A stretch of 51,874 nt of DNA from an uncultured Gammaproteobacteria bacterium (lineage in GTDB: Bacteria; Pseudomonadota; Gammaproteobacteria; Pseudomonadales; UBA5518). Position 1 is the first letter of the stretch, and every line of letters starts with the position of its first letter. Under the pieces are notes generated by a model. It ran no database searches. It saw only the letters and a list, made by a program, of their open reading frames with translations, and was not told where the DNA came from. Shown here piece after piece: positions 31,425 through 47,839 of this stretch. Both the position numbers and the translations under genes were made by a program. Where the stretch lies: contig CAJADV010000048.1 of NCBI GenBank assembly GCA_903938575.1, positions 1 to 51,874 of the forward strand. Reading direction: 5' to 3'.

Positions 31425-31455
31425 GGCGACTCCGTAGAACGGGAACAAAAGGGAC

Positions 31456-32388
31456 TCAGGGGGCGGCGAAACTCACGGCATTGGCAACCAGGCGAGCGGT
31501 TTCGGGGGGAATCTCGCCAACCACCGTGACCACGCCCTCGGGCAGCCGCGGGGTGACATAGGCTACTGTCGCCCCCTGTGCGGCCTGGCCCGGGCCCGTC
31601 ACGTCGGCGTCGGACTGGTGTTCGACAAACACACTGAACACCGCAAGGCCATCGGTGAACATACGGGTCTCGACCTCCAGGCCGGAGTCGCCCTGGCGGC
31701 GCTCCCGGGCGCTCTCGGCGAAGCCCGGCGGCAGCCAGGACACGCTCCAGGAAAAACTTTTCGCCTCATCGTTGTGCAAGACGGCATGCGAGGCATCGAT
31801 CCGAGCGCCGGGCGCAGTGCTAAACATCTCAGCCGCGGGAATGGCTCCACCAACGACCAGCTCGACGAACTGGACACGCTCCAGCACCCGGCCCGCTCCA
31901 TCGGTGGTCTCGGCCTTCAGAGGCAGCGCACTGTCGGTGTCTAGCACCAGAGTCATGCCGTAGCGGTAGGGATCGCGCGGGCTGATCCGCAGGCGCCGAC
32001 CCTCACGGTTGGCTATGCGCTCGGTGCCATCCATTTCGACGGCATAAAACTGCGCGATCCCGGGGTTCGACAGCGAGGCAGCCGCGGCCGGTGACGACAA
32101 CAAACGGTGGCCGGCATGCTCGCAGTCGAGCGGGTGCTGCATCCGCAGAAACTCCCGGCCTGCGCCGTCCAGATCCTGCAGCCTCTCCTGTTCCACGCCA
32201 TCAACGACGGTGTGCACGATGCGCGCAGAACTGGTGCGCTGGCCTTCCTGATACGTGAATACCCCGTGGTAGTTGGTTCCGCGCACGTTGCGGGCCATGA
32301 GCTCCAGCAGCGGAAAGGCCGCTTCGCCGGCAAACGCGGCACTGGTACCAAGCAGCAGGGAGATCGCGCCGCAGACCCGGGCCTTCAT
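31456..32388 (-). CDS. rseB: sigma-E regulatory protein RseB/MucB
   Basis: Signal peptide MKARVCGAISLLLGTSAAFA, then LLELMARNVRGTNYHGVFTYQEG, which is typical of RseB/MucB. It follows rseA directly. Confidence 0.85.
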   Translation of the reverse strand: MKARVCGAISLLLGTSAAFAGEAAFPLLELMARNVRGTNYHGVFTYQEGQRTSSARIVHTVVDGVEQERLQDLDGAGREFLRMQHPLDCEHAGHRLLSSPAAAASLSNPGIAQFYAVEMDGTERIANREGRRLRISPRDPYRYGMTLVLDTDSALPLKAETTDGAGRVLERVQFVELVVGGAIPAAEMFSTAPGARIDASHAVLHNDEAKSFSWSVSWLPPGFAESARERRQGDSGLEVETRMFTDGLAVFSVFVEHQSDADVTGPGQAAQGATVAYVTPRLPEGVVTVVGEIPPETARLVANAVSFAAP

Positions 32389-32392
32389 GGGC

Positions 32393-33037
32393 TCAGGGCT
32401 GCTCGGAGGAATCGACACGAACAAAGGGGATCATGCCTTGCGGGCCATTGAAGGAAGCGTTCTGGGCGTGATCGAGCATGAACATCCGGAGCCTGAGCTC
32501 TGCGGCACGGTCGACGCCGGAACCGGCCGGCGGCAGCGGCGAACCGAGGCCCACGGGCATCGCACCGCCGCGCGCGAGCATGGGCACCATGGCCGGTGCA
32601 CCCAGGCTACCCAGGGCCATTCCTGAGGCCGCCACGGCGTTACCGGCAAATCCCGCGGGAGAACCCGCGTCCGCGAGCATGCGGGTACCGAGCACTGTCA
32701 CAAGGCAGACCGAGGCCGCTACAGCAGCGCCACCGGCCCAGGTGCGCCAGCGGGCAACAGCCCCGGAGGCAGCCAGAGGCGCCTCGTCGTGCAAGGCCGC
32801 CAGAACGGCGGCCGTCAGCTCAGGCGGACACAAAGCGGAGGCCTCGCGACGCATGACCGCACGCACCGTGTAATGGCGCTCGACAAGACCCCTGACCTCC
32901 GGGTCTTCGAGGGAGTCAAGCAGACGCCGGATTTCGAAATCACTCGCCTCGCCATCGACGAGGGCCGAGACCATTTCTCGCAGGGGTTCTGTCGTTCTTG
33001 ACAAGGCTTTCTCGCCTCCCGGTTCGTTACCCTTCAT
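32393..33037 (-). CDS. rseA: anti-sigma-E factor RseA/MucA
   Basis: MVSALVDGEASDFEIRRLL...HYTVRAVMRRE is an RseA N-domain pattern. There is a central TM segment. ATG 33037 has a GAGGAGG RBS. Confidence 0.85.
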   Translation of the reverse strand: MKGNEPGGEKALSRTTEPLREMVSALVDGEASDFEIRRLLDSLEDPEVRGLVERHYTVRAVMRREASALCPPELTAAVLAALHDEAPLAASGAVARWRTWAGGAAVAASVCLVTVLGTRMLADAGSPAGFAGNAVAASGMALGSLGAPAMVPMLARGGAMPVGLGSPLPPAGSGVDRAAELRLRMFMLDHAQNASFNGPQGMIPFVRVDSSEQP

Positions 33038-33056
33038 CGGATACCTCCTCCGCGAA

Positions 33057-33644
33057 TTAGTTCCCTGGCAGCAGGGGTAGAATTTCCGCGTCGACCGCCT
33101 CACGCGCCCGGAAGATCCGGGAGCGCACGGTGCCGACCGGGCATTGCATCGCCTCGGCGATCTCTTCGTAACTCAATCCGTCGAACTCGCGCAGGGTGAG
33201 TGCGACCCGCAGATCCTCCGGCAGACGACGCATGGCCTCTTCGATAGCCTGGCGCAACTGCTCGGTCATCAGCTGGCTTTCGGGGCCGTCGATGTCGCGT
33301 AACGCCCAGCCCCCATCGACCTGCTCGGCGTCTTCGATGTCGATATCCGCGCCGGGCGGTCGGCGCGATCGCGCGACCAGATAATTCTTTGCGGTATTGA
33401 TCGCGATCCGGTAGAGCCAGGTGTAGAACGCGCTCTCGCCGCGGAAAGAACCGAGCGCCCGGTAGGCCTTGATGAAAGCCTCCTGCACGACATCCTGCAC
33501 CTCGTCGGGATCGCGCACGAAACGCGATGCGAGGGAATGGATGCGGTGGCGGTACTTGAGAAACAGCACATCAAAGGCGCGCCGGTCGCCCTGCTGCACG
33601 CGAACAACGAGCTGCGCGTCGCTGTCGTCGGCGGGAAGCATCAT
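33057..33644 (-). CDS. rpoE: RNA polymerase sigma factor RpoE/AlgU (ECF sigma-24)
   Basis: DAQLVVRVQQGDRRAFDVLFLKYRHRI..., region 2 FYTWLYRIAINTAKN and region 4 LREFDGLSYEEIAEAMQCPVGTVRSRIFRAREA. The start is ATGATG at 33644. The 423-aa track ORF is an artefactual extension. Confidence 0.95.
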   Translation of the reverse strand: MMLPADDSDAQLVVRVQQGDRRAFDVLFLKYRHRIHSLASRFVRDPDEVQDVVQEAFIKAYRALGSFRGESAFYTWLYRIAINTAKNYLVARSRRPPGADIDIEDAEQVDGGWALRDIDGPESQLMTEQLRQAIEEAMRRLPEDLRVALTLREFDGLSYEEIAEAMQCPVGTVRSRIFRAREAVDAEILPLLPGN

Positions 33645-33808
33645 GCCCGCATGCCGGGCATGGATGTCTCGGGGCGCACCGGCTCGGTGGACATGCAGCG
33701 GCCCGACTCCCCGGGGTGATGTGACGCCGTGACTATACGGCCTGCGGCAGACCCCGAAAAGGCCGGAATCCCTACGCGAAACGCGGAATCGGGGAGCTGG
33801 CAGCGCTG

Positions 33809-33817
33809 TGCTATATT
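33809..33817 (+). promoter_or_regulatory. candidate extended -10 element for nadB
   Basis: TGcTATATT lies 27 nt upstream of the nadB ATG. No good -35 element. Pattern recognition only. Confidence 0.3.
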
Positions 33818-33843
33818 CCGGCCTCATTCCAGCGGGCCACTCC

Positions 33844-35418
33844 ATGCCACGGCGATACTCCCACGACGTGCTGGTGATAGGCAGCGGCGCTGCAGGATTG
33901 AGTGTAGCGATCCAGATTGCAGCGCACGCCCGCGTGGCGGTCATCTGCAAGGGCAAATTAGACGAGGGCTCCACAGCCTGGGCGCAGGGTGGCATCGCCG
34001 CGGTGCTCGATGACACCGACAGCATCGACGCCCATGTGGAAGACACGCTCCGCGCAGGCGCCGGACTCTGCCATGAGGATGTGGTCCGCTTTACCGTGAG
34101 CCACAGCCGCGAGAGCATCCAGTGGCTGGTCGATCTGGGCGTCGGCTTCACCAAACTGGTCACGCCTGATGGCAATGAAGATTTCCACCTCACCATGGAA
34201 GGTGGGCATAGCCACCGCCGTATCATCCATGCAGCCGACGCCACGGGTCGGGCGGTCTCCGACACCCTGAGCGGGCAGGTCCGCCGCCACGAATCGATCG
34301 AGGTCTTCGAGCAGCACATCGCCGTCAACCTGATAACCCGTGACGGACGGTGCTGCGGGGCCTACGTCCTGGACATCGAGAAAAATTCCGTCGATCTGTT
34401 CGCGGCACCTTTCGTGGTGCTGGCCACGGGCGGCGCGAGCAAGGCCTATCTCTACACCACCAACCCCGATACCGCGACGGGCGACGGGATCGCCATGGCC
34501 TGGCGGGCCGGTTGCCGTGTGGCGAACCTCGAGTTCAACCAGTTCCATCCCACCTGTCTCTATCATCCGCGAGCCAAGAGCTTTCTGGTGTCCGAGGCGG
34601 TGCGCGGCGAGGGCGGCGTGCTGCGCCTGCCGGGTGGGGAGCGTTTCATGGATCGCTTCCACCCGCAGGCCGAACTCGCCCCGCGCGACATCGTTGCCCG
34701 CGCTATCGACCACGAGATGAAGCGCCTGGGCATCGACTGCGTCTACCTCGATATCACGCACAAGGGCGAGGCCTTCATTCGCGAGCACTTCCCGACCATC
34801 CATGCCCGCTGCCTGGAACTTGGCTTCGACATGTCGCGCGAGGCGCTGCCGGTGGTGCCCGCCGCGCACTACACCTGCGGCGGCGTGCTTATAGACCTGC
34901 AGGGCCAGACCGATGTGCCCGGTCTGTACGCGGCCGGCGAGACAGCATTTACCGGGTTACATGGCGCCAACCGCATGGCCAGCAACTCGCTGCTCGAGTG
35001 TTTCGTCTTCGCGCGCGCTGCGGCGCAGAGCATCGCCGCGCAACTCGGCTCGGTCTCGTCACCGTCCGGGATACCCGACTGGGATGCCTCGCAGGTGCGC
35101 GATTCCGACGAGGATGTGGTGATCTCGCACAACTGGGACGAGCTGCGCCGCTTCATGTGGGATTACGTCGGTATCGTGCGAACCACCAAACGGCTGCGAC
35201 GCGCTCAGAACCGCGCCCATCTGTTGCAGTTGGAGATCGCCGAGTACTACAGCAACTACCGCATCACCGCGGATCTGGTGGAGTTGCGCAACCTGGCGCT
35301 GGTGGCAGAACTGATCATCGCCAGCGCGCTCGAGCGGCGCGAGAGCCGTGGCCTGCACTACACACTCGATTACCCGCAGACCTCAGCGCAGGCCCTCGAC
35401 ACCATCCTCACGCCCTGA
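33844..35418 (+). CDS. nadB: L-aspartate oxidase
   Basis: FAD motif [20 protein letters not shown] and HYTCGGV. It is divergent from rpoE, as in E. coli. Confidence 0.95.
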
Positions 35419-36133: not shown

Positions 36134-37057
36134 ATGACCAATCTCGCACCCGTCTCCGCAACAGCATGCCTGATATCCCTCGAGAGTTACGGATTCCTGT
36201 CTGTCGAGGGCGCGCGTGCTGCGGAATTCCTTCAGGGGCAGCTCACCTGCGACCTGCGCCAGGCGAGCGCGGAGCACGCGATCGGCGGGGCCTGGTGCAC
36301 GCCCAAGGGCCGCGTGGTTTGCAGCTTCCTGCTGTGGCAGGCCTCGGCCGAGCAGGTGCTGCTGCGGCTGCGTGCGGATCTGCTGCAGTCAACCCTCGTG
36401 CAGCTATCCCGCTACGGAGCTCTCTCGCGGGTTCGCATTGTCGAGGCGCCGATGCGCTGCCTCGGCATCCTCGGCGAGCCCTCCACGGCGGCACGGGCAG
36501 CGCTCGCGCAAACCTGGCCTGCCGAGGCAGACCACCTCAGGCCAGTGGAGGGTGGTGTGTTGCTCCGGGCCGATGCCGCCGGACAGCGCCACGAACTCTG
36601 GCTCGATCCGCAGGCTGCGGTGCACTGGGCCGGGCGCCTGGCAGAGTTGCTCCCCGGAGGCAGCGAGAGCGACTGGCGCCTTGCGCTGGTGCGCGCGAAT
36701 GCCGCCGAGATCCAGGCTGCCACCCGCGAACTTTTCCTGCCGCAGATGCTGCGCTACGACACTAACGGCAGCGTGAGCTTCCGCAAGGGCTGCTATACGG
36801 GACAGGAAATCGTGGCGCGCACGCATTACAAGGGAGGCGTCAAACGTCATCTGCAGCACCTGACAGGCGCAGCGAGCCCACCACCCCCGGGCAGCAGTCT
36901 GATCGCGGGCACTCAGCCTGCGGGAACCGTGGTCGAGTCGGCGCCGGACGGGCGTGGTGGCTGCGAGGTGCTTGCCGTACTGGCCGACGAACTCGCAACC
37001 GGACCCTCGGGAGCATTCCTGAGCGAGGCCGGAGACACACTTCGTTTGCCGGCCTGA
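36134..37057 (+). CDS. ygfZ: folate-binding Fe-S cluster repair/tRNA-modification protein YgfZ
   Basis: GFLSVEGARAAEFLQGQLTCDL and the C-terminal FRKGCYTGQEIVARTHYKG signature. It is divergent from sdhE, as in E. coli. Confidence 0.9.
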   Translation: MTNLAPVSATACLISLESYGFLSVEGARAAEFLQGQLTCDLRQASAEHAIGGAWCTPKGRVVCSFLLWQASAEQVLLRLRADLLQSTLVQLSRYGALSRVRIVEAPMRCLGILGEPSTAARAALAQTWPAEADHLRPVEGGVLLRADAAGQRHELWLDPQAAVHWAGRLAELLPGGSESDWRLALVRANAAEIQAATRELFLPQMLRYDTNGSVSFRKGCYTGQEIVARTHYKGGVKRHLQHLTGAASPPPPGSSLIAGTQPAGTVVESAPDGRGGCEVLAVLADELATGPSGAFLSEAGDTLRLPA

Positions 37058-37126
37058 CAACCGGGTAGGTATGATCTCGGCGCGCGCTGCGACCTACCTC
37101 TGCAGCAACGCCCAAAGGAGATGCCC

Positions 37127-37963
37127 ATGTCGAGCCTGGTCGATGAGATCCGCGCTCAGCTGATCGAAGCCATCAAGAACAATCGCATCGTGCTGCCGAC
37201 GCTCCCCGAGGTGGCGCTGCGCATACGCGATGCCGCCGAGGATCCACGCTCAGACATCGCCTCCTTCGCCCGTGAACTCGGCTTCGATGCGGCGCTGTCG
37301 GCCCGAGTGATCCGGGTGGCAAACAGCCCGCTGATGCGCGGCAATTCGCCAGTCACGGACGTCAAGGGTGCCGCGGCCCGACTCGGCATCCAGTATTCCT
37401 GCAACCTGGCGGTCGGCCTTGCCATGGAACAGATGTTCCAGGCCACCTCGGATGCCATCGACGAGCGCATGCGCCAGATCTGGGCCCACAGCACCGAGGT
37501 AGCCGGTATCAGCGCCGTGCTCGCGCGAACCTACACCCGCCTGAAGCCCGACCAGGTGATGCTCGCCGGCCTGGTGCACCGGATCGGCGCGCTGCCGATC
37601 CTCCGTTTCGCCGAAGAAGACCGCAACCTGCTGAAAGATCTTGATGTCCTCGATGAACTCATCGAGGCGCTGCACGGCGAGATCGGCAAACTCATCCTCG
37701 ACACCTGGGCCTTCCCCCCGGAGATCGCGACAGTCCCGTTGTCCTACCTCGATTTCGCGCGCAAGCCGGCTGCCGTGGATATCACCGACATCGTGATGGT
37801 GGCCAACCTGCAGAGCTACATGGGCTCCTCGCATCCGCTGGCCACGCTCGACTGGACAACCGTCAGCGCCTTCGGTCGCATCGGCCTCGATCCGAACGTG
37901 AGTTCGATGGAGGCCGAGGATCTGAGCGAAGCCATGGCCGCGAGCATCGCCGCGCTTCAGTAG
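37127..37963 (+). CDS. HDOD domain-containing protein
   Basis: [18 protein letters not shown]...[11 protein letters not shown]...GLVHRIG matches the HDOD pattern. ATG 37127 has AAGGAG 6 nt upstream (alternative ATG at 37121). Confidence 0.82.
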
Positions 37964-38667
37964 GCCTCTGAACCCCAGTCGACGGGGTCGATGCCGTTAT
38001 CTGCCAGGTAGCGGTTGGCACTGGAGAAGTGCCCGTTGCCGATGAAGCCCCGGTACGCGGAAAGCGGCGAGGGATGCGGTGAAACCAGTACCAGATGCCG
38101 GCTCCTGTCGACGATTCGACCCTTGCGTTGGGCATAACTGCCCCACAGCATGAACACCAGGTGCTCGCACCGGGCACTCAGCACCTCCACCACGCGATCG
38201 GTGAAGGTCTCCCAGCCTTTGCCTTGATGCGAGGCCGCATGGGCCTGCTCCACCGTGAGCACACTGTTCAGTAGCAGCACGCCCTGCTTCGCCCAGCGAT
38301 CAAGGCAACCGTGCGCCGGTCGCGGCAGGCCGAGATCGCGCTCGAGCTCGGCAAGGATGTTGACCAGCGAAGGCGGCGGTGCAACGCCCCGCGGCACGGA
38401 AAAACACAAGCCATGCGCCTGTCCGGGGCCGTGATAGGGATCCTGCCCGAGGATCACCACTTTCACGGCGGCGAAGGGCGTGCTGCGGAAGGCCGCGAAC
38501 CAGTTAGCCGCCGCGGGGTAGATCTCCACCCCGCGGCGCTTTTCGGCGATCAGGAAGGCCCGCAACTGCTGCATGTAAGGCTGCTCGAACTCGGACCCGA
38601 GCTCCGCGAGCCAGCCGGGTTCGAGGTCGATGCGCCGACCCGGATCAGCGCTCGTCGGGGACGCCAT
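37957..38667 (-). CDS. ung: uracil-DNA glycosylase
   Basis: [31 protein letters not shown] and HPSPLSA motifs. ATG 38667. Confidence 0.95.
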
Positions 38668-39916
38668 GACGCCGCTGGTATGCGCTGAACAGTTCGCGCT
38701 CTCGCGCCTGGAACTCGGCATCGCCCGCCTCGTACCGATGGACCCCGAACTTTCCCTTGGGCTTGGCGGCGATATAGGCGCACATGCGCTCCTCGGCCAC
38801 TGCCCCGAGGGGCATCGAGAGCCGGGCGTAAAGCTCGCGGACAGCGACGAGAGGATCGTCCATCAGCTGCTGGTAGCGCGAATCAACGACACGATCGGCC
38901 GGCACGATGCCGAGATCACGCTGGCGCATGACGTTCTCGAGGCGCGAAGCCGTGGCTGCCCCCATGATCAGATCCTCGAAGGCCGAGGAATCGAAAGCCT
39001 TGTCGCTGCGCATCCAGTAGAGGCAACCGAGCAGGTTGGTGGCCGAGGCCATGCACTTCAGCGGGTCGCGGTGCGTCTGCACCACGCGGGCATCCGGATA
39101 GGTGGCGAACAGCGTGGGCAGGTGGCCCAAGTGATTCGGCGCCTTGAGCAGCCAGCGCGTCGCGTCACCCGCGCGCCATTGCAGCAGCTTCAGGACGCGG
39201 CGGTGATACCGGTAGGCGAGACTCCACTCATGGGTAAAGAGCCAGGCGTCGTAGGACGGCGTCTGCTGCAGCGCGGGAAAGTGTTCGCTCAGAAAGGTAT
39301 TGGCCATGATCATGCCGCACTCCGAGGGAATGCGTCCGCCCATCTCATGCATCGCGGCATAGGCCGGCACCACGCGGGCCCACTGCGTTACCAGATGATC
39401 GGCGCGTTGAATGCGTGCCTCGATGTCCTCGGTGCTGGCGAGCGCTGGCGGCGGGCAGGAGAACAGGAGCATCCAGGTCTCGGGAATCGTGAAGCCCGGA
39501 TCCTGCGCCAGCAGCTCGAAAAGAATAGAGGTGCCTGAGCGCGGCAATCCGGCAATGAACAACGGCTCGCGGATCTCCTCCTCGTCGATCTCGGGATGGC
39601 GCCGGTACCAGTCCTCGATATGCAGTCGGTTCTGCAGGAACACCAGCAGTTCGCTGCGGCACATGATGCGGCCGGTGAGGTTGAGTTCTGCCTCGGCCTC
39701 GAGGGCCTCGACCAGTACCCGGAACGGCGCTTCCCAATCGGGATCGCCGAAGTCCTCGAGACCTGTGGCGCGACAGGCGGCGTCAATCAGGCTCGCGGCA
39801 TCGAGGGGCACGACGGCGCTGATATCCATGCCGCGCCCTTCGGCATTCAACCGCTCCGCCCAGTCTGCGCGTGGCGGTGGCGTCCAGCGATCCCGGCGAT
39901 CGTCGCTCGCGCTCAT
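38645..39916 (-). CDS. sulfotransferase-family protein
   Basis: PAPS 5'-phosphosulfate-binding loop [14 protein letters not shown]. About 420 aa. The pattern matches bacterial sulfotransferase-domain proteins. Confidence 0.75.
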
Positions 39917-39931
39917 GGGAACGGATCGCCC

Positions 39932-40375
39932 TCAGGACTCGTAGGCTTGGTCGATATTCGGGGCAAAGAGTTCCATGCCCGCAGGCACGCTGACGCAGCT
40001 CTCGTCCCAGAAGGCGCGGGCGCGCTGGATGAGACCCGCGTCGTTCACCTCGAAGTAATCGACCACGGCAAGATCGAGGCCTTTGTTTTCCGCCGGGACA
40101 CGCACCTGCATGGTAAAACGCAGTATCCCCTCATGGCCGTTGGCAATGATCTGGTCGATGCGCGGCAGAATGGTGCGCCCCTGATCGGCGCCCATATGCG
40201 CGAAATCCCAGAACTTCGATACGCCCTCGTGACCGATGAAGGGCGGCGTGCCCACTGGATCCTCCCAGGTGGCATCGGGTGCGAATATGCCGAGCAACAG
40301 GGCCTTGTCGCCCGTGGCCCAGGCCTGCATGTAGGTGCGGATGGCGTGTCTTACCTGATCGGGGGTCGCGGCCAT
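39932..40375 (-). CDS. SnoaL/NTF2-like (ketosteroid-isomerase fold) protein
   Basis: VRHAIRTYMQAWATGDKALLLGIFAPDATWEDPVGTPP is a typical SnoaL-like N-terminus. ATG 40375 has a GAGGAG RBS. Confidence 0.7.
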   Translation of the reverse strand: MAATPDQVRHAIRTYMQAWATGDKALLLGIFAPDATWEDPVGTPPFIGHEGVSKFWDFAHMGADQGRTILPRIDQIIANGHEGILRFTMQVRVPAENKGLDLAVVDYFEVNDAGLIQRARAFWDESCVSVPAGMELFAPNIDQAYES

Positions 40376-40409
40376 GGTGTGTTCTCCTCGGCGTATCGTG
40401 GCTGGAAAA

Positions 40410-41306
40410 TCAGCGGTGTATGACCTGTTCGGCGAAGCGCTGCATCGCTGCACGCTTGCTCTCTCGCAGGGCGGGATTGGCGCCCGGATCAAACCAGGGC
40501 GCCGTGATGAAAGGATTGGGCATCCACGGGCTCATGATCATCAAGCCCGTGACACCGGCCTCCTCGAGTTCGGCGATGGTCGCTGGCTCATGTGCTTCAG
40601 TGAGCGCGATATTCACGGCAAGCCCCTCGGCGCCAAGGCCTGCAGCCAAGCGCTCACGCCGCAGCGTCTCGACCATCGGCACGGCGGCAGCGCGATCGAG
40701 CGGCAACCCGAGCCAACCGTCATTGCGGGCGGCGCGACGCAACGCGGGCGCTGAGGCCCCACCGCACCACACCGGCACCGTAGACGGCGGTGGCGGGCAC
40801 ATGATGCCCTCGTCGAAGCCAAAGAACTCGCCGCGATGCGAGACCGGCTGGCCACTCCAGAGCCGACGCATGACGACCAGCAGTTCATCGAGGCGACGGC
40901 CACGGCTGCCGAAGTCGACGCCCATCAACTCGTATTCCTCGCGCAACCAACCCGCTGCCACGCCGAGCACGATGCGTCCGTTGGAGAGCACGCTCGCGGT
41001 GGACACGGCCTTGGCCAGCGTGATCGGGTCGCGCATCGCAGCGATGCAGATATTGGACGCGAGCCGCAGACGGGAGGTGACCGCACCCATGGCGGCGAGC
41101 GTGACCCAGGGGTCGGGCCAGGGCGTGTCTGACGGCCACCACATGGCGCCGTCCTCCGTGTAGGGGTAGCGGCTGTCGATCCGGGTGGGCATCAGCAGGT
41201 GGTCAGCTACCGTGATGCCATCGAAGCCTGCTTCCTCGGCCATGCGCGCGACATCGAGCAACTGGTCCTGCTCGGGAATCGTGGTGATGGAAAGCCAGTA
41301 CTCCAT
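40410..41306 (-). CDS. luciferase-like monooxygenase (LLM) class, probable F420-dependent oxidoreductase
   Basis: AEEAGFDGITVADHLL..., ...LGVAAGW... and a ~300-aa TIM-barrel pattern like Rv2161c-type F420 enzymes. It lies directly downstream of fbiC. ATG 41306 has a GGAGGA RBS. Confidence 0.75.
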   Translation of the reverse strand: MEYWLSITTIPEQDQLLDVARMAEEAGFDGITVADHLLMPTRIDSRYPYTEDGAMWWPSDTPWPDPWVTLAAMGAVTSRLRLASNICIAAMRDPITLAKAVSTASVLSNGRIVLGVAAGWLREEYELMGVDFGSRGRRLDELLVVMRRLWSGQPVSHRGEFFGFDEGIMCPPPPSTVPVWCGGASAPALRRAARNDGWLGLPLDRAAAVPMVETLRRERLAAGLGAEGLAVNIALTEAHEPATIAELEEAGVTGLMIMSPWMPNPFITAPWFDPGANPALRESKRAAMQRFAEQVIHR

Positions 41307-41335
41307 GAACGATCCTCCAGGTTTTTCCGGGGTGC

Positions 41336-43831
41336 TCAGCCGCTGCAACTGGCCATCGAATCACGGGCGATTATCCCCGCGCGGCGCTCGCCTGCCGGTG
41401 CCTTGCGTACCTGCGCATTGACGATATCCGCAAGCGGTGCTGCTGCCAGCGAGACAGCGCGGCGATCAGGATCGGCACTCGCATAAAGCGTGCTGCGCTG
41501 CCATGGCTCACGTCCCGCCGCGCTGATCAGTTGCTCGAGCGCCGCTGGCGGAAACTCCTGCCCGTGCTCCGCGCCCGCCGCCCGGGTGATCGACTCGTTC
41601 ATCAGCGTGCCACCGGCATCGTTGGCACCCGCGTTCAGGCAGGCTCGCAAGCCCTCGGGCCCGAGCTTCACCCAGGAGGCCTGTATGCTGGGGATTTCCG
41701 GATACAGCACGAGGCGCGCCACGGCGTGCATCAGCACGGACTCGCGGAAGGTGGGGCCGCGGCGCGCACGGCCACGGCGAAAGAGCGGTGCTTCCTCGGC
41801 CACGAAAGGCAGCGGCACGAACTCGGTGAAGCCGTGGTGCTCGCGCGCCAGGGCCTTGATCCGCAACAGGTGCCGCGCAAGGTGCTCGGGCTTTTCGACA
41901 TGCCCGAACATCACGGTGGCAGTGGTCTTGATGCCGAGCGCATGCGCGGTGCGCATGACCTCGAGCCACTGCTCGGTGTTTATCTTGTCCGGGGCTATCA
42001 CGGCGCGGACCTCGTCATCGAGGATTTCCGCCGCCGTCCCCGGCAGGGTCGCAAGACCCGCCTCGCGCAGCCGTGAGAGAAAGTCCGCGAGCGACAGGCC
42101 GAGTGTCTTTGCGCCCTGCCAGATCTCGAGCGGCGAGAAGGCATGGATGTGGATCCCCGGCACGGCTTCTTTGACGACCGCGCAGACATCGAGATACTTC
42201 TGACCGGTGTAAGCGGGATGGATTCCGCCCTGCAGGCAGACCTCGGTGGCACCGCGCTCCCAGGCCTCGGCTACGCGGCGGCCCAGTTCGGCATCGTCGA
42301 TGTCGTAGGGCGTGCCGCGCAGATCGTCGTGGCCCTTGCCCTTGGAGAACGCGCAGAAGTTGCAGTGGAAATAGCACACGTTGGTGTAGTTGATATTGCG
42401 GTTGACCACGTAGCTCACGCGATCGCCGTGCAGTCGCTCGCGCAGCGCATCGGCGGCCGCGCAAACCGCCGCGAAGTCCGCGCCACGCGCGCGGAGCAGC
42501 CAGGCGATCCCCGCCTCGTCGGGTTCCGCGCCATCGGCAGCCCGGGAGAGCAGCGCCGCAGTGCGCGCCGAAATGCTGCCGGCGTGCATGGCACGCCCCT
42601 CGAGCAGAGCTGTTTCAAATTCGGGCAGCCGAGTCGAGGAGCCCGTGACCCAAGCATCCGTGCGCGGAAAACCATCACCATCGACGGCCGCGAGAAGTTT
42701 CGGCAACAGCGCCACATCAGACCAGAGCGCGGCGTCACGCACCCACGCAGGATAGATCGTGAGGCGCTCCTGTAGGAACTTGCCCGTGGAAGCTGTCTCG
42801 GCGGCGAGTTGGTCGAGATGCGGCCAGGGTGCCTCGGGATTCACGAAATCGGGCGTGAGCGGCGAGACGCCACCCCAGTCGTTGATGCCTGCTTCGAGCA
42901 GTCGCGGCAACACGCCGGGGCTCAGGTTGGGCGGCGCCTGGATGCTGATAGAGGGGCCCAGCACCAGCCGCGCCACCGCGATGGTCCAGAGCAGGTCTTC
43001 GAGGTCGGGCTCCGGTGACCGGGCCATGCGCGTGCCCGGCTTGGCACGGAAATTCTGGACGATCACTTCCTGCAGATGCCCGTGCTCGCGTGCTGCATCA
43101 CGCAGCGCAAGCAGGGCCGAGACGCGCTCGAGGCGGGTCTCGCCGATGCCGATCAGGATGCCCGAGGTGAAGGGCACATGCGCCTCGCCCGCAAGCCGGA
43201 GGGTCTCGAGGCGTGCGGCAGGCAGCTTGTCGGGTGAACCGTGATGGGGCATGCCCTTGCCGCAGAGCCGCTCAGAGACGGACTCCAGCATGATGCCCAT
43301 GGACGGTGCCACGCGCCGCAGCATCGCGATCTCGGTGGCGTTCATGTTGCCGGCGTTTATGTGGGGGAACAGGCCGGTCTGCTCGAACACGGCGCCCGCC
43401 ACATGGGCGAGGTACTCGAGCGTGCTGGCAAAACCGAGCGCCTCGAGCGCCTCGCGTGCGGCGCGATAACGCAGCTCAGGTTTTTCACCCAGCGTGAACA
43501 GCGCCTCCTTGCAACCGAGCCGGGCGCCCGCGCGCGCCACCTCGAGCACCTGCTCGAGACTCATGAACGGCTGATCGATGCGTTTTGGCGTACGGGCGAA
43601 GGTGCAGTAATGACACACGTCACGGCACAGGTGCGTGAGTGGAATGAACACTTTTCGCGAGTACGTGATGACGTTGCCGAAACCGCTGTCACGCAGCGTG
43701 GCAGCAATCTGCATGAGCGCGCCCGTGTCCTCGACGCCGGCCAGCGCGAGCGCCTGGTCGTCGGAGAGTCCACTCGGGGAAACGGCTGCCTCGAGTATTG
43801 CGTCAAGCGGATCGGTCACGAGCACCTGCAC
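41336..43831 (-). CDS. fbiC: bifunctional FO synthase (CofG+CofH fusion, FbiC)
   Basis: Two radical-SAM CxxxCxxC motifs, CRDVCHYCTF (CofG half) and CYFHCNFCAF (CofH half). The ORF is open to 43948, but that would overlap cofC by 86 nt. GTG 43831 with AGGAGA 6 nt upstream is preferred. Confidence 0.9.
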   Translation of the reverse strand: MQVLVTDPLDAILEAAVSPSGLSDDQALALAGVEDTGALMQIAATLRDSGFGNVITYSRKVFIPLTHLCRDVCHYCTFARTPKRIDQPFMSLEQVLEVARAGARLGCKEALFTLGEKPELRYRAAREALEALGFASTLEYLAHVAGAVFEQTGLFPHINAGNMNATEIAMLRRVAPSMGIMLESVSERLCGKGMPHHGSPDKLPAARLETLRLAGEAHVPFTSGILIGIGETRLERVSALLALRDAAREHGHLQEVIVQNFRAKPGTRMARSPEPDLEDLLWTIAVARLVLGPSISIQAPPNLSPGVLPRLLEAGINDWGGVSPLTPDFVNPEAPWPHLDQLAAETASTGKFLQERLTIYPAWVRDAALWSDVALLPKLLAAVDGDGFPRTDAWVTGSSTRLPEFETALLEGRAMHAGSISARTAALLSRAADGAEPDEAGIAWLLRARGADFAAVCAAADALRERLHGDRVSYVVNRNINYTNVCYFHCNFCAFSKGKGHDDLRGTPYDIDDAELGRRVAEAWERGATEVCLQGGIHPAYTGQKYLDVCAVVKEAVPGIHIHAFSPLEIWQGAKTLGLSLADFLSRLREAGLATLPGTAAEILDDEVRAVIAPDKINTEQWLEVMRTAHALGIKTTATVMFGHVEKPEHLARHLLRIKALAREHHGFTEFVPLPFVAEEAPLFRRGRARRGPTFRESVLMHAVARLVLYPEIPSIQASWVKLGPEGLRACLNAGANDAGGTLMNESITRAAGAEHGQEFPPAALEQLISAAGREPWQRSTLYASADPDRRAVSLAAAPLADIVNAQVRKAPAGERRAGIIARDSMASCSG

Positions 43832-43862
43832 TGCATCTCTCCTGGCCAAGGCCGCCGCCGAT

Positions 43863-44555
43863 TCATCCCGCTTGCCGACGGTAGCTGTGAATCCAAGCCT
43901 GACTGCGCTCGCCGGGAGCATTGTCTTGAGTTTCACCGGGGTGCACAAGCAGCGCGAGATCGGCCGGGACGTCGATATCGAACGCGAGCGCCGGCTCCGT
44001 CAATTCACGGCAAGGTAGCCCCGCCTCAGCGCAAGCCTGCACGTGGCGGGCGCGGCTTCCGGGCCCGAAGAGCAGGGGAATGGCGAGCGGCGGCGAGAGC
44101 AGGAGGCAGTTGGTGCCGGTGCCCTCCCGATCGCTAACCAGCGTCGCATGAGGGATTGAGGGGCTGGCCGCATGAGCTGCCAGCAAGCGTCGCAGCGCGG
44201 GCCCGCTCGCACGGGGCAAATCCGCGTGGATCATCAGCACGGCCTCGGCACCAGAGCCCGCGGCGCGGCTCGCGGCCTCCGCAAGCGCTGCGTTCAGCGG
44301 ATCGCAGACCGCGGGCGAAGGCCGGAACAGAGCCACGCCAAGCCGCAAGGCAAAGCCAGCGACCTCGGGATCCTCGGAGACCAGCACGATCTGCGTGGAA
44401 GGCAACGGCAACTCGAGCAGCGCTCGGACCAGATCCTCGGCCATCGCCTCGACCAGCGCGCATCGCGCGGCGGCGGGCAACACGCCGGCGAGCCGTTCCT
44501 TGCCGCCGGCAAGCTGCCTGAGTGGCACCAGCGCCCAGGTGCCGCTACCGCTCAT
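43863..44555 (-). CDS. cofC: F420 biosynthesis guanylyltransferase CofC/FbiD
   Basis: WALVPLRQLAGGKERL...R..L..AM..D nucleotidyltransferase pattern. It sits between cofD and fbiC. 4-nt overlap with cofD. Confidence 0.78.
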   Translation of the reverse strand: MSGSGTWALVPLRQLAGGKERLAGVLPAAARCALVEAMAEDLVRALLELPLPSTQIVLVSEDPEVAGFALRLGVALFRPSPAVCDPLNAALAEAASRAAGSGAEAVLMIHADLPRASGPALRRLLAAHAASPSIPHATLVSDREGTGTNCLLLSPPLAIPLLFGPGSRARHVQACAEAGLPCRELTEPALAFDIDVPADLALLVHPGETQDNAPGERSQAWIHSYRRQAG

Positions 44556-45496
44556 GCCGCAAGCCCTGCGAGAAACTCCAGCACCTCGGCGGCGAGGCGC
44601 TGCTTAGAGGCAACATCGGTCATCACCGTGTCGGTGACCAACACCGCCATGCCGAGTTCGCGCACCGCATCGGCTTGCCCGGCATCAACCCGATCCAGCA
44701 CGAAGCCGCGCAGCAGACCACGGTAATGACGGGCAACCTCGAAGGCTGAGGGAGCAAGACCCAGTTGCTCCATCAGGGCTGCTGCCGGCCCCTTGATCGC
44801 TCGCCCACCCACGATCGGCGAGATCGCCACCGTGGAGGCAGCGGCCAGCCGCGACCGCAGATCGCCCAGGGCGAGTATCGGGTCGACGCTCAGCCAGGGA
44901 TTGGAGGGGCAAATCACCACGGCGGCGCCCCTGTCCAGCCACTCGAGCAGCGCAGGGTTGGGGCGGGCACTGGCAGCGCCCTCATAGCGCAATGCATGCA
45001 CGCGGGGCGCACAGCGCTCACGCACGAAATAGGCCTGGAAAGCGAGCTCGCCACGATCAGTCGTGAGCAGGGTGCGCACCGGGTCGTCGCTCATCGGCAA
45101 GAGCGCGTGGCGCACACCGAGCGCGGCGCAGAGCCGCGCCGTGACCGTCGAGAGCGTGTCGCCTGATCGCAGCATGAGGCTGCGCTGGAGGTGGGTGGCC
45201 AGATCCCGGTCGCCGAGACGGAACCAGTCCGGCCCGCCCAGCGCGGCCATCGCCTCCATGCACTGCCAGGACTCGCCCGCGAGGCCCCAGCCACGCTCGG
45301 GATCCGCGAGGCCTGCGAGCGTATACATCACGGTGTCTAGATCGGGAGAAATGCTGAGCCCCAAATGCTCGAAGTCATCGGCGGTGTTGGCGAGGATCGC
45401 GAGCTCGTCCGGGCCAAGACACGCCGTGAGCCCCAGCGCCAGCTTGGCGCCGCCCACCCCGCCGGACAGGGCGATGACCCGCGCTGGCCTGCTCAC
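44552..45496 (-). CDS. cofD: 2-phospho-L-lactate transferase CofD/FbiA
   Basis: VIALSGGVGGAKLALGL...GDRDLATHL...PSNPWLSVDPIL are characteristic CofD motifs. Confidence 0.88.
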   Translation of the reverse strand: MSRPARVIALSGGVGGAKLALGLTACLGPDELAILANTADDFEHLGLSISPDLDTVMYTLAGLADPERGWGLAGESWQCMEAMAALGGPDWFRLGDRDLATHLQRSLMLRSGDTLSTVTARLCAALGVRHALLPMSDDPVRTLLTTDRGELAFQAYFVRERCAPRVHALRYEGAASARPNPALLEWLDRGAAVVICPSNPWLSVDPILALGDLRSRLAAASTVAISPIVGGRAIKGPAAALMEQLGLAPSAFEVARHYRGLLRGFVLDRVDAGQADAVRELGMAVLVTDTVMTDVASKQRLAAEVLEFLAGLAA

Positions 45497-46290
45497 CGAC
45501 GGAACAGATCCTTGGCCGGATCACGGATGAGTGCGCGCATGCCCTCCTCCGACGACTCCAGCCGGGCCCCGCGCACCAGCACGGCGGGAATGCCCTCATC
45601 GGCCTGACCCATCAGGAACGAAGCGGCAGCGGCAAGCTCGTCTGCAACCGCTACCTCGGTCATTTCCAGCAGGCGTCCAAAAAGATCGGGCTGACCGATA
45701 CGGTTCACCACCGGGCGGAACCCGGCGCAACCGATGGCAAAACCCGTGATGCCATTGCGCCACGCCCGACCCGCGCTGTCGTTGATGATGACGCAGACAT
45801 CGCGGCCGGTGGCCTCCCGCAAACCGCAGCGCAAGGCGCGCGCACTGGCGTCGGGGTCTTCGGGCAGCAGCAGCACACGGTTCGGGTCGGCCACATTGGA
45901 GCGATCGACCCCGGCGTTGGCGTGCACATAACCCAGCCGGTGCTCGACGATCAACGCCCCGGGACGCTGCCGCAGCACCGCCACCGATTCACGGAGGATC
46001 ACCTCGATCAGCCGCGGGTCCTTGTCGGCCAGCGGCGCCAGCCTCTCGGCCTCGGCCGAGGCCGTCACATCGCGCAGGTCGACGTAACGGTTCTCCGCTT
46101 TGGAGACGATCTTCTGGGCGACCACCAGCAGGTCGCCGTCGATGAAGCCGCCGGCCGCCCGCTCTGCAGCCGCAAGAATCGGCGCGACGATATCGTCGCC
46201 CGGCTCGATCAGCGGGATGCCGTCGAGGGCGTAGAGCCGCAGCGACTCACTCACCGTGGCTGTCGGTCCCGGTGATGCGGATGCCGGCAT
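45493..46290 (-). CDS. cofE: F420-0:gamma-glutamyl ligase CofE (stand-alone, no FbiB C-terminal domain)
   Basis: GIPLIEPGDDIV...VVAQKIVSKAE...ANAGVD...INDS is a CofE pattern. 265 aa. ATG 46290 overlaps npdG by 44 nt (alternative GTG at 46254). Confidence 0.82.
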   Translation of the reverse strand: MPASASPGPTATVSESLRLYALDGIPLIEPGDDIVAPILAAAERAAGGFIDGDLLVVAQKIVSKAENRYVDLRDVTASAEAERLAPLADKDPRLIEVILRESVAVLRQRPGALIVEHRLGYVHANAGVDRSNVADPNRVLLLPEDPDASARALRCGLREATGRDVCVIINDSAGRAWRNGITGFAIGCAGFRPVVNRIGQPDLFGRLLEMTEVAVADELAAAASFLMGQADEGIPAVLVRGARLESSEEGMRALIRDPAKDLFRR

Positions 46291-46927
46291 GGCATTTGAA
46301 AGTTCGGTTGATATTGATGATCACGGAGGTGAGCGCCTCGGCGGCGGCGGCGTTGGCGATGGGGCCGGCATGGAAGCCGCGCATGCCGCAGTCCTCGATC
46401 AGAGCGATCACCTCGGCGCGCGCATCCTTGTCGTTGCCGCACACAAGTACATCGCACTCGATGCCCTGGCCTTCCTGCAGGTGGTGGGCGGCCACGTTCT
46501 GGAACGCGGAGACCACCTTCACGCCATCCCCGCAGATCTGCTGGGCGGCCTGCCCTGCGGAACCCTCGGCGGGAAGTTGCACCGTGCCCACTTTGGGCGG
46601 CATGAGCGGCACCGTCACATCTACCAGGATCTTGCCCTCCAGCGCGGACTTCACGTGCTCGAGCGTACTGCGCTGGTGCGCGAACGGCACCGTGAGGACG
46701 ACCAGATCGGCCGCGCGTGCAGCCTCGAGGTTTTCCATGGCCAGCACGCCGCCGGCATCGGCGCCGCGCTCGGCCATGACCTTGCGCAGGTCCTCTAGCG
46801 CCTCGAGGGCCTTCTCCTCGGAGCGTGAACCGATGATCACGCGGTGACCGGCCTGGGTCCAGCGACGCGCGAGACCCGTGCCGAGCGCACCGGTGCCGCC
46901 GAGAATGGCGATGCTTTTGGAACTCAT
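46247..46927 (-). CDS. npdG: NADPH-dependent F420 reductase
   Basis: IAILGGTGALGTGLARRWTQAGHRVIIGSR Rossmann N-terminus typical of NpdG/Fno. ATG 46927 has a GGAGGA RBS. It heads the F420 gene string. Confidence 0.82.
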   Translation of the reverse strand: MSSKSIAILGGTGALGTGLARRWTQAGHRVIIGSRSEEKALEALEDLRKVMAERGADAGGVLAMENLEAARAADLVVLTVPFAHQRSTLEHVKSALEGKILVDVTVPLMPPKVGTVQLPAEGSAGQAAQQICGDGVKVVSAFQNVAAHHLQEGQGIECDVLVCGNDKDARAEVIALIEDCGMRGFHAGPIANAAAAEALTSVIININRTFKCHAGIRITGTDSHGE

Positions 46928-47059
46928 GAATCCTCCAGAATGGGTGGGGCTGGCTGCCGCACAAAAGGGCGCCAGTATACTTAGCCCGCGACGCGTGGCG
47001 GTATGCTTACACCGATCGCGCGCAATCGGATCCCCAGTTCTCTCAGGAGTCACCCGCCA

Positions 47060-47839
47060 ATGCAGAACCCGCTCGACATGCAAGGGCGCCTCGTCGTTGT
47101 CACCGGGGGTGCCCGCGGCGTGGGCGCGGGCATCAGCCGCAGTTTCCTAGAGGCTGGCGCCGATGTTGCCGTTATCGGGCGCAGCGCCCCGGAGACGCCC
47201 GTGTCGGCCGGCGGGCGGGAGGCCGGATTCTTTGCCGCCGACGTCCGCGACCCGGAACAACTGGCCGCAGCCTTCACGGCGATCGTGGAGCGTTTCGGAC
47301 GGATCGATGTGCTGGTGAACAACGCCGGCGGCTCACCACCCTCGGAGGCCGCGACCGCCTCGCCACGCTTTGCGGAGTCGATCATCCGCCTGAACCTGCT
47401 GGCGCCGTTCAATGCGGCGCAATGCGCCAATCGCGTGATGCAGCAACAACCCGAGGGCGGCACCATCATCAATATCGCCAGCGTCAGCGCGATACGCCCC
47501 TCCCCGGGCACCGCCGCCTACGGCGCGGCCAAGGCGGGACTGGTCAACCTCACCGCCTCGCTCGCCGTGGAATGGGCCCCGAAGGTGCGGGTGGTGGCGG
47601 TGATTTCCGGGCTGGTCGACACCGAACAATCACACCTCTACTACGGCGATGCCGAGGGTGTGGCAGCGGTGGGCAGGACCATTCCGCTCGGCCGGATGGC
47701 CGTGCCTGCGGACATCGGGCAGGTCTGCCTCTTCCTGGCCTCGCCGATGGCCGCCTACGTGTCGGGGTCGGCGCTGACGGTGCACGGCGGAGGCGAAGCC
47801 CCGGCCTTCCTTGCGGCCTCGAACGCGGCCGCGCGCTAA
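47060..47839 (+). CDS. short-chain dehydrogenase/reductase (SDR)
   Basis: VVTGGARGVGAG cofactor motif, NNAG and YGAAK catalytic motif. ATG 47060 with a CAGGAG RBS. Confidence 0.9.
   Translation: MQNPLDMQGRLVVVTGGARGVGAGISRSFLEAGADVAVIGRSAPETPVSAGGREAGFFAADVRDPEQLAAAFTAIVERFGRIDVLVNNAGGSPPSEAATASPRFAESIIRLNLLAPFNAAQCANRVMQQQPEGGTIINIASVSAIRPSPGTAAYGAAKAGLVNLTASLAVEWAPKVRVVAVISGLVDTEQSHLYYGDAEGVAAVGRTIPLGRMAVPADIGQVCLFLASPMAAYVSGSALTVHGGGEAPAFLAASNAAAR

Follow-up and report, generated by a model that had tools for sequence, protein, structure and literature searches.

The window (the whole stretch of DNA analyzed, 51,874 nt) carries a run of co-directional F420 biosynthesis genes that is followed by four further genes and preceded by a divergently transcribed oxidoreductase gene. 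Profile scores were judged against the curated NCBIfam cut-offs, which are given after each score; the SnoaL_2 and Sulfotransfer_3 assignments are Pfam matches.

46247..46927, minus strand: npdG (fno), NADPH-dependent F420 reductase (TIGR01915, 202.9 bits against 149.8, profile positions 3-220 of 220)
45493..46290, minus strand: cofE, F420-0:gamma-glutamyl ligase (TIGR01916, 274.7 against 180.65, profile positions 2-244 of 244; Pfam F420_ligase, 249 bits)
44552..45496, minus strand: cofD, (2-phospho-L-lactate / enolpyruvyl) transferase (TIGR01819, 296.2 against 257.45, profile positions 1-300 of 301)
43863..44555, minus strand: cofC / fbiD, guanylyltransferase of the 2-PL/PEP type (TIGR03552, 130.9 against 105)
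41336..43948 (longest ORF), minus strand: fbiC, fused CofG+CofH FO synthase (NF006687 CofGH, 1110.7 against 1018)
40410..41306, minus strand: LLM-class oxidoreductase of the TIGR03619 (F420_Rv2161c) subfamily, a predicted F420 user (213.9 against 166.9)
39932..40375, minus strand: SnoaL_2 / ketosteroid-isomerase-like protein (Pfam SnoaL_2, 61.3 bits)
38645..39916, minus strand: PAPS-type sulfotransferase, Sulfotransfer_3 (Pfam PF13469, 119.7 bits; PDB 2zq5, 141 bits, and 2z6v, 117 bits)
37957..38667, minus strand: ung, uracil-DNA glycosylase (NF003589, 334.3 bits)
47003..47839, plus strand: SDR oxidoreductase, divergently transcribed (NF005893, 387.2 bits against 255)

The five core genes all scored above the curated equivalog cut-offs, with the profiles covered over their full length and the ORFs intact, and no gene was reassigned when CofG/CofH, CofC, CofD, CofE and NpdG were compared with their family profiles. 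The two halves of FbiC each exceeded their own cut-off (TIGR03550, 480.7; TIGR03551, 538), and both radical-SAM CxxxCxxC motifs were found, CRDVCHYC at residue 108 and CYFHCNFC at residue 525. CofE is a single-domain protein, without the C-terminal nitroreductase domain of FbiB. The first gene of the operon is npdG, with an ATG at 46927 that has GGAGG just before it (Shine-Dalgarno inspection). The start of cofE is either ATG 46290 or GTG 46254, and with either one the gene overlaps the npdG 3′ end. As seen from the ORF coordinates, 4-nt overlaps join the cofD GTG start to the cofE stop (45493-45496) and the cofC ATG to the cofD stop (44552-44555). The start of fbiC is probably GTG 43831 or 43825, which gives about 830 aa (the frames of its relatives are 829-830 aa), the LLM gene (longest ORF, 40410-41348) probably starts at ATG 41306 (298 aa) and the SnoaL gene (longest ORF, 39932-40492) at ATG 40375 (147 aa), and ung probably begins at ATG 38667, in a 23-nt overlap with the sulfotransferase stop. 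All genes from npdG to ung, including the four after fbiC, overlap or are closely spaced, and no terminator-like site was found between these genes on the coding strand; ung is probably the last gene of the F420 operon transcript. At the other end, npdG and the divergent SDR gene share a 75-bp intergenic region (46928-47002). The flanks of the operon hold core genes (lepA, a degP-type protease, mucB/rseB and a probable nadB), no tRNA is present at the locus, no integrase or transposase is found among the flanking genes, and the GC content stays within about 0.65-0.69 throughout. The initial annotation had placed the genes from npdG to the sulfotransferase at these coordinates on the minus strand, with short spacers, the two 4-nt overlaps and both radical-SAM motifs, between ordinary neighbors (ung, SDR) devoid of mobility genes, and all of this was recovered here from the ORFs and the profile matches.

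Few members of the class have F420 biosynthesis (of 400 genomes drawn evenly, 15 have CofD above cut-off), and its distribution in the order is patchy: the sister genus G016 does not have these genes. Such a distribution would suit an island gained recently, or a relic, decaying or silent, in an organism that does not really use F420. We give this reading very little credence. The ORFs and profiles are complete, as described above, and every one of the 15 further genomes from the genus has the cluster (fbiC in 15/15); fbiC also occurs in 8 genomes from the order's other families. The locus shows neither a compositional shift nor a mobility gene. The layout SDR, npdG-cofE-cofD-cofC-fbiC, ung recurs in about 12 Halieaceae-type genomes belonging to other families: the divergent SDR gene adjoins npdG there and in members of the genus, with 62-77% identity, and ung lies directly 3′ of fbiC in the same Halieaceae-type loci and in G003. 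In the FbiC tree the window falls within a 40-row set (SH-aLRT 100) whose members are Gammaproteobacteria and unlabelled relatives only, a placement congruent with the class labels. Together, the presence of fbiC throughout the genus, the common SDR and ung flanks and the gammaproteobacterial FbiC clade indicate that the F420 cluster is old and vertically inherited, so that any horizontal acquisition was an old one, as had been proposed. Transcript-derived contigs also speak against a silent relic. Contigs from freshwater (lake) metatranscriptomes match at least 99% over SnoaL, LLM, fbiC, cofC, cofD, cofE and npdG (the last over 46283-46635), and several of them cross gene junctions; they are low-depth assembled contigs that carry no strand information and could include DNA carry-over, and the operon is apparently transcribed in the lake.

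The three genes that follow fbiC have a different history. The initial annotation had counted them into one F420 string with the core genes; this holds for npdG-cofE-cofD-cofC-fbiC, whereas LLM, SnoaL and sulfotransferase were inserted step by step within the genus, with LLM as the first gene, and are not part of the ancestral string. The LLM gene is missing at the equivalent site in G003 and in the Halieaceae loci, and an orthologue of the sulfotransferase (70-97%) occurs in G006, G008, G002, G013 and G011 only. The pairing of LLM and sulfotransferase is seen again elsewhere. The best solved relative of the LLM protein is 9fp4, an F420-dependent hydroxymycolic acid dehydrogenase. The SnoaL protein aligns full-length to the ketosteroid isomerase of P. 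putida, with Tyr16, Asp40 and Asp103 represented by Y15, the D of WEDP and D106, and it matches the MonBI/II epoxide hydrolases at 55 bits; the sulfotransferase translation shows PRSGTS and HRDP motifs. The operon would thus have grown within the genus by gaining first the F420-type LLM and the ketosteroid-isomerase-like gene and last the PAPS sulfotransferase. The trio most likely ties one client pathway directly to the cofactor supply, and this pathway would most likely comprise a ketone/alcohol redox step and then sulfation of a hydrophobic substrate.

A count of F420-dependent LLM and FDOR genes, which had been suggested as a check, gave 15 LLM-class enzymes above F420-specific cut-offs (12 TIGR03619, 1 TIGR03560, 1 TIGR03621 and 1 TIGR03617) plus one borderline, and two Ddn-type FDOR-A genes (PF04075, 121.6 and 107.8 bits) for which no control genome has a match. 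About 17 F420-using enzymes are therefore predicted in this genome. The LLM family co-varies with fbiC: TIGR03619 has members in 21/24 fbiC-positive and in 0/17 fbiC-negative relatives, and outside the genus in 5/8 and 0/17, respectively (Fisher p=0.001). The F420 dependence of this family rests on phylogenetic profiling. Genomes of the genus carry 6-17 TIGR03619 genes each, a client set that counts against a relic.

The nature of the side chain depends on the C3 acid activated by CofC. [quoted passage not shown] A profile search found no dehydro-F420 reductase of the FbiB C-terminal or FbiE type in this genome; the best candidate is a YdjA-type nitroreductase (NF008088, 181.3 bits; TIGR03553, 32.5-34 bits against a cut-off of 249.6). 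To our knowledge, no 2-phospholactate-forming enzyme has been described in any organism, which leaves a gap of one step in the pathway. Neither a reductase nor a source of 2-phospholactate would be needed if the cluster made 3PG-F420 from 3-phosphoglycerate, like Mycetohabitans (Paraburkholderia) rhizoxinica, and Hasan et al. suppose that the switch to 3-PG arose in such a reductase-less metabolic background. Moreover, among solved structures the window's CofC scores highest with the 3-PG-activating enzyme of that organism (7p97, 66.9 bits, against 51.4 for Mtb FbiD). Nevertheless, the variant side chain, at which the initial annotation had hinted, finds no support in the residues of CofC. Alignment to PDB 6bwg (Mtb FbiD) and 7p97 revealed FGPGS, GTGT and DPLNAAL, i.e., Gly at the diagnostic site, which is Ser/Thr in the 3-PG type and Gly in the 2-PL/PEP type (PMC8764529), Thr at the His145 position and Leu/Leu at the Met91/Cys95 positions. 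All four sites are in the 2-PL/PEP state (Gly/Thr/Leu/Leu, against Ser/His/Met/Cys in the 3-PG enzymes), and the CofCs of the Mycetohabitans clade branch off early and separately (PMC8764529), so a 3-PG product appears very improbable. From these residues we predict F420 of the classical, lactyl-linked kind, starting from either 2-phospholactate or, through dehydro-F420, PEP; with a single-domain CofE and neither type of reductase found, both routes remain. The PEP route, in which a reductase that escapes recognition (possibly among the many LLM, FDOR and SDR genes) would saturate the side chain, or dehydro-F420 would be used as such, is a variant of the same explanation that differs in the C3 donor only, and we regard it as a serious possibility, somewhat short of an even chance. 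PEP is a universal metabolite, whereas bacteria have no known source of 2-PL (PMC8498797); in addition, the cognate CofC/D of Ca. Entotheonella, a Gram-negative F420 producer, favoured PEP (PMC8764529). Against it stand the missing FbiB domain and reductase, and the preference of other Gram-negative CofCs for 2-PL in vitro, in an assay biased by the CofD used.

We conclude, with a probability of about 0.88, that the locus works as a coenzyme F420 operon, that it has been inherited with the chromosome and that it belongs to the Gram-negative (stand-alone CofE) type. The profile matches and the client count support the earlier proposal that this organism probably makes and uses a deazaflavin cofactor. 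FbiC, with its two radical-SAM domains, would join tyrosine and the riboflavin precursor 5-amino-6-ribitylamino-uracil into the deazaflavin head group FO; CofC would activate the C3 acid with GTP, CofD would move it onto FO, CofE would add the gamma-glutamyl tail, and NpdG/Fno would load hydride from NADPH onto the cofactor, which would then serve the predicted LLM and FDOR clients. Fgd was not found in the genome, so Fno is the sole recognisable F420 reductase. FO itself is a known photolyase chromophore, and organisms that make only FO typically carry cofG/cofH or fbiC without cofCDE. It could be argued that the head group alone matters here, e.g., as a photolyase antenna, with cofC/D/E dispensable, and the linkage to the DNA-repair gene ung in many lineages would fit. 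However, none of cofC, cofD, cofE and fno is disrupted; they are translationally coupled to one another and kept with fbiC throughout, next to about 17 predicted F420-dependent enzymes, which makes this most unlikely. Gene presence is no proof of abundant use of the operon's product, since two alphaproteobacteria with such operons make trace F420 only (PMC8498797).

These two, Paracoccus denitrificans and Oligotropha carboxidovorans, have F420 clusters in which CofE stands alone and Fno is present, as described by Ney et al. 2017 and summarised in PMC8498797. On that account they share with the present locus a compact operon of fused FbiC, CofC, CofD, single-domain CofE and Fno, the lack of the FbiB C-terminal domain, an aerobic Gram-negative heterotroph as host, and a C3 donor that may be 2-PL or PEP, their CofCs having favoured 2-PL in vitro. 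In contrast, the host here is a freshwater gammaproteobacterium (GTDB order Pseudomonadales), while a 2021 review names Alpha- and Betaproteobacteria only and predicts Fgd in addition to Fno for Alphaproteobacteria (PMC8498797). This host is known from metagenomes only, and its F420 system is read here from genes. Its client set (15 LLM and 2 FDOR-A) is far bigger, those two alphaproteobacteria being trace producers, and its operon has the extra LLM, KSI-like, sulfotransferase and ung genes. M. rhizoxinica is likewise Gram-negative; its CofE has a single domain, it has no dehydro-F420 reductase, and its sole reductase is Fno, but it lacks recognisable F420-dependent enzymes (PMC8498797). With mycobacterial fbiABCD and T. 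roseum the locus shares the fused FbiC, the PEP/2-PL-type residues in CofC/FbiD and a large number of LLM and FDOR clients, among them the Rv2161c-type LLM family; it differs in the absence of FbiB-C and FbiE-like reductases and in having its genes in one operon with fno, whereas theirs are dispersed. An F420 operon in a freshwater gammaproteobacterium is thus a real but ordinary addition to the F420 systems already known.

The eight co-directional genes that the initial annotation placed at 38645-46927 of the minus strand were recovered exactly as described. The family HMM searches that it had proposed for CofG/CofH, CofC, CofD, CofE and NpdG placed all five core genes above the curated NCBIfam cut-offs with essentially complete profile coverage, and assigned the LLM oxidoreductase, the SnoaL-like gene and the sulfotransferase downstream of fbiC to TIGR03619, SnoaL_2 and Sulfotransfer_3, respectively. 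The rows below give the bit scores against the cut-offs.

Open frame 46247-47083, ATG at 46927, minus strand: NpdG/Fno; TIGR01915, 202.9 versus 149.8, profile positions 3-220 of 220
Minus strand: CofE; TIGR01916, 274.7 versus 180.65, profile positions 2-244 of 244
Minus strand: CofD; TIGR01819, 296.2 versus 257.45
Minus strand: CofC; TIGR03552, 130.9 versus 105
Minus strand: fused FbiC; NF006687, 1110.7 versus 1018; TIGR03550, 480.7 versus 213; TIGR03551, 538 versus 374
Minus strand: sulfotransferase; Sulfotransfer_3 (PF13469), 119.7 versus 27, with PRSGTS and HRDP in the translation

The CofG and CofH radical-SAM halves of FbiC each exceeded their own cut-off, and both CxxxCxxC motifs are present (CRDVCHYC at residue 108 and CYFHCNFC at residue 525). 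The ORF coordinates confirmed both 4-nt overlaps (44552-44555 and 45493-45496); cofC and cofD are adjacent, full length and share one such overlap, and the Mg-binding and substrate motifs of CofC align to those of 6bwg and 7p97. Inspection of start codons and Shine-Dalgarno sequences revealed that, from npdG (ATG at 46927) to ung (ATG at 38667, which overlaps the sulfotransferase stop codon), the genes are separated by spacers of 13-32 nt or overlap, which is compatible with one nine-gene transcription unit, divergent from the SDR gene. In a pattern scan of the operon, the terminator-like sites on the coding strand all fell inside genes, none between them, and their number did not exceed that in shuffled sequences; the spacer between npdG and the SDR gene held nothing resembling a promoter. 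As judged from gene content and motifs, the window has all the testable features that define an F420 biosynthesis operon.

The closest known systems are the Fno-containing operons with a stand-alone CofE of the Gram-negative P. denitrificans and O. carboxidovorans, and more distant ones are the Mycetohabitans 3PG-F420 cluster and the PEP pathway of mycobacteria and Thermomicrobium; the window lacks the features that define the 3PG and FbiB/FbiE variants. The operon type is already known and holds nothing unexpected for a specialist, and the overall interpretation is supported.

A Ser/Thr at the position of S162 in Mrhiz-CofC (G163 in Mtb-FbiD) is diagnostic of 3-phosphoglycerate (3-PG) use, with His145 and Met91/Cys95 as supporting residues (Hasan et al., PMC8764529). 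When the window's CofC was aligned to 7p97 (a CofC that uses 3-PG) and 6bwg (Mtb FbiD), the corresponding segments FGPGS, GTGT and DPLNAAL carried Gly, Thr and Leu/Leu, i.e., the 3-PG signature is absent and all four sites are in the state associated with 2-phospholactate (2-PL) or PEP. The predicted product is therefore classical lactyl-linked F420 rather than 3PG-F420. The side chain might derive from 2-PL or from PEP, neither of which is favoured, and the in vitro preference of CofC depends on its CofD partner, for which reason Hasan et al. hold that such assays need a CofC and a CofD taken from one organism (PMC8764529). CofE (253-265 aa) consists of the ligase domain alone, and a genome-wide search with TIGR03553, a model of the FbiB C-terminal domain, found no nitroreductase-fold dehydro-F420 (DF420) reductase, whether fused to CofE as in FbiB or free-standing as in FbiE: the best match reached 32.5 bits, far below the cut-off of 249.55. 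This match was rejected as a dedicated DF420 reductase, being a YdjA-type housekeeping nitroreductase (NF008088, 181.3 bits; YdjA in the PDB, 160 bits). With a single-domain CofE and only a YdjA-type match, the genome shows the same gap as other Gram-negative producers, for which neither a dehydro-F420 reductase nor a source of 2-phospholactate is known (PMC8498797), and it adds one more clear case, that of a predicted producer. Furthermore, no Fgd is encoded in the genome (best match 65 bits versus 420), so that NADPH via Fno is the sole recognisable means of reducing the cofactor, as is also the case in the betaproteobacterial producers (PMC8498797).

The source is a draft genome of 4.36 Mb (97% complete), of which the window is one entire contig of 51.9 kb. 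The organism is known from metagenomes only, and metagenomes of lake, river and freshwater origin, in nine or more studies, contain near-identical sequence. All 15 further genomes of the genus carry fbiC, as do eight genomes from other families in the order; the sister genus lacks it. The operon is uncommon in the class as a whole: in 400 genomes drawn evenly across it, CofD exceeded its cut-off in 15 (~4%), belonging to roughly ten families. Outside the genus, the closest named FbiC proteins share at most 65% identity and all come from GTDB Pseudomonadales (Halieaceae, Halioglobus, Haliea, Zhongshania, Spongiibacteraceae and Pseudohongiellaceae), and in about 12 of these loci the order is an SDR gene in the opposite orientation followed by npdG-cofE-cofD-cofC-fbiC-ung, with both flanking genes the same as in the window. 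In the FbiC tree (86 rows), the window and its genus fall in a 40-row set (SH-aLRT 100) composed solely of Gammaproteobacteria and unlabelled relatives, and the class labels change 9 times on the tree versus 28 when shuffled. The immediate surroundings had been called ordinary and free of mobility genes, and indeed neither an integrase nor a transposase lies near the operon, the GC content is flat, and the wider flanks are core genes (lepA, a DegP-type protease, mucB/rseB, probable nadB, HDOD, phasin and TetR genes). The distribution of fbiC, the layout of the loci, the tree, the flanks and the GC content bear out the earlier suggestion that any horizontal acquisition would be old; within the order, the operon behaves as a vertically inherited trait with occasional loss.

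Several features of the neighbourhood and of single genomes were also recorded. The core-region character is confirmed by a block at 28108-35418 with lepA, a DegP/MucD-type protease, mucB/rseB and a divergent FAD-binding flavoprotein gene, probably nadB. Between this block and the HDOD gene lies a coding-like ORF of 218 aa (36404-37060, minus strand; GC3 0.75) with no Pfam match at E<=1e-5, and a tRNA scan found no tRNA in the window. The position of ung directly 3′ of fbiC, with the SDR gene divergent from npdG, recurs in several families (loci L009, L010, L015, L018, L021, L022, L027-L030, L034 and L096); this linkage of the F420 operon to a DNA repair gene is conserved without an evident functional reason. 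In G007, another member of the genus (80% complete, 6% contamination), fbiC was recovered in five or six fragments that lie in separate open frames (C21:196112-198450), the result of either gene decay or an assembly error; all other incomplete copies seen can be put down to contig ends.

Two freshwater metatranscriptome studies yielded assembled contigs, most of them at >= 99% identity, that cover parts of the SnoaL-like gene, the LLM gene, fbiC, cofC, cofD, cofE and npdG, and span the junctions sulfotransferase/SnoaL, SnoaL/LLM, cofC/fbiC and cofD/cofC. These contigs are of low depth and strandless, and DNA carry-over is possible, so their support for transcription of the operon is not decisive.

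A count of other F420-dependent LLM and FDOR genes had also been called for, and it yielded 15 LLMs and two Ddn-type FDOR-A genes as predicted F420-using enzymes. The genome has some 30 ORFs of the LLM superfamily, of which these 15 exceeded the cut-offs of F420-specific subfamilies (12 TIGR03619, the window's included, one TIGR03560, one TIGR03621 and one TIGR03617), and a further one was borderline (165.9 versus 166.9). The window's LLM scored 213.9 against the TIGR03619 cut-off of 166.9, which the 11 other copies also exceeded. The FDOR-A genes scored 121.6 and 107.8 bits and were matched by none of 14 control genomes. Five weak matches to the PPOX-class F420 enzymes (TIGR03618) all fell below the cut-off and were thus left out of the count. 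We know of no characterised member of TIGR03619. Over 41 relatives, the subfamily was found in 21/24 fbiC-positive but 0/17 fbiC-negative genomes, and with the window's genus removed in 5/8 versus 0/17 (Fisher p = 0.001); in the control genomes no match exceeded the cut-off. Copy numbers range from 6 to 17 per genome in the genus versus 0 to 6 in the other F420-positive families. This co-occurrence with fbiC and the high copy number support the F420 dependence of the family, and a host that would truly use the cofactor.

The LLM, SnoaL-like and sulfotransferase genes occupy a site that exists in three states within the genus: fbiC-ung (G003), fbiC-LLM-SnoaL-ung (G010) and fbiC-LLM-SnoaL-sulfotransferase-ung (G011, G006 and the window). 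The site (38645-41348 in the window; loci L094 in G010, L095 in G011 and L096 in G003) thus shows a stepwise insertion series, with the G003 order as the ancestral one. The series offers a natural experiment, in that strains with and without the three genes can be compared. The best solved relative of the LLM is the F420-dependent hydroxymycolic acid dehydrogenase (fHMAD, 9fp4), at only 66 bits; fHMAD is a secondary alcohol/ketone enzyme. In pairwise alignments the SnoaL protein matched the P. putida ketosteroid isomerase (KSI; 1w6y/3rgr) end to end, with Y15, the Asp within WEDP and D106 at the places of the catalytic Tyr16, Asp40 and Asp103 (P. putida numbering). The scores of MonB-type epoxide hydrolases are a little better (55 bits), and we therefore describe the protein as putatively KSI-like, within the SnoaL/NTF2-like superfamily, rather than as a KSI proper. 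The sulfotransferase carries the 5′-phosphosulfate (PxxGS/T) and 3′-phosphate (RDP) binding motifs, and its only PDB matches were 2zq5 and 2z6v, both deposited as 'putative uncharacterized protein', which we take to be Mtb Stf1 and M. avium STF9, respectively. For the supply of PAPS, the genome encodes an APS kinase (PF01583, 231.7 bits; C24:6899-7354). The three genes probably constitute one client pathway that became fused to cofactor supply, comprising a redox step and the sulfation of a hydrophobic alcohol or ketone.

The pairing of LLM and sulfotransferase genes is not confined to the operon. The Stf-like Sulfotransfer_3 family is enlarged in the genus (6 copies in the window's genome and up to 17 in G011), and in the window's genome two of the six copies lie within 3 kb of a TIGR03619-like LLM (permutation, P = 0.007); in G010, 5 of 16 copies are neighbours of such an LLM, versus 0.56 expected (P ~2e-4). 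The genes adjoining these pairs encode SDRs, MDR alcohol dehydrogenases, a P450, DUF7064, an alkyl sulfatase and a TonB-dependent receptor, and an AMP-dependent ligase is also found beside Stf-like copies. Given the receptor, P450, dehydrogenase and ligase genes, the loci look like operons for the uptake and transformation of hydrophobic compounds. We regard the LLM/sulfotransferase theme as the most promising lead. The number of LLMs per genome (6-17), their above-chance adjacency to Stf-like genes, the neighbouring genes and the stepwise grafting of a module onto the operon would fit a network, driven by F420 in this lake genus, for transforming hydrophobic compounds (steroid-, terpenoid- or lipid-like) and the sulfate esters of these, in which F420 would be more than a minor cofactor; we put the chance of this at about one in five. 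If true, the three genes next to fbiC would isomerise one substrate, reduce its keto group with F420H2 (or catalyse the reverse oxidation) and sulfate it at the oxygen, and a physiological role of F420 would for the first time be defined in Gammaproteobacteria.

Chemical proof of F420 exists for only a handful of Gram-negatives, and no F420-dependent enzyme from these had been studied according to a 2021 review, which makes no mention of Gammaproteobacteria (PMC8498797). In a limited collection of literature we found no paper linking F420 to Halieaceae-type bacteria and none dedicated to Gammaproteobacteria, and such work may be published elsewhere. With this cluster, the F420 genes are now recorded in a widespread freshwater genus of Gammaproteobacteria, and the large client set, together with a client module physically joined to the biosynthesis operon, makes it a better-than-average entry point to proteobacterial F420 use.

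Sulfotransferase copies were seen repeatedly beside TIGR03619-type LLMs and SDRs, both in the window's own genome (G000 contigs C162, C119, C24, C262 and C216) and in loci L088-L093 of G010, G006 and G005. In one of these (L092, G006 C25:18000-26000; G000 C216:11738-13895 is its counterpart), a gene for an alkyl sulfatase of the MBL fold (Lactamase_B and Alkyl_sulf_dimr) directly precedes a sulfotransferase paralogue and an F420-type LLM, and therefore sulfate-ester-cleaving and -forming genes adjoin. On contig C24 of the window's genome (4547-7354), the APS kinase gene lies directly downstream of a sulfotransferase paralogue with an open frame of 745 aa, a length that suggests a fusion protein and a dedicated PAPS supply for sulfation.
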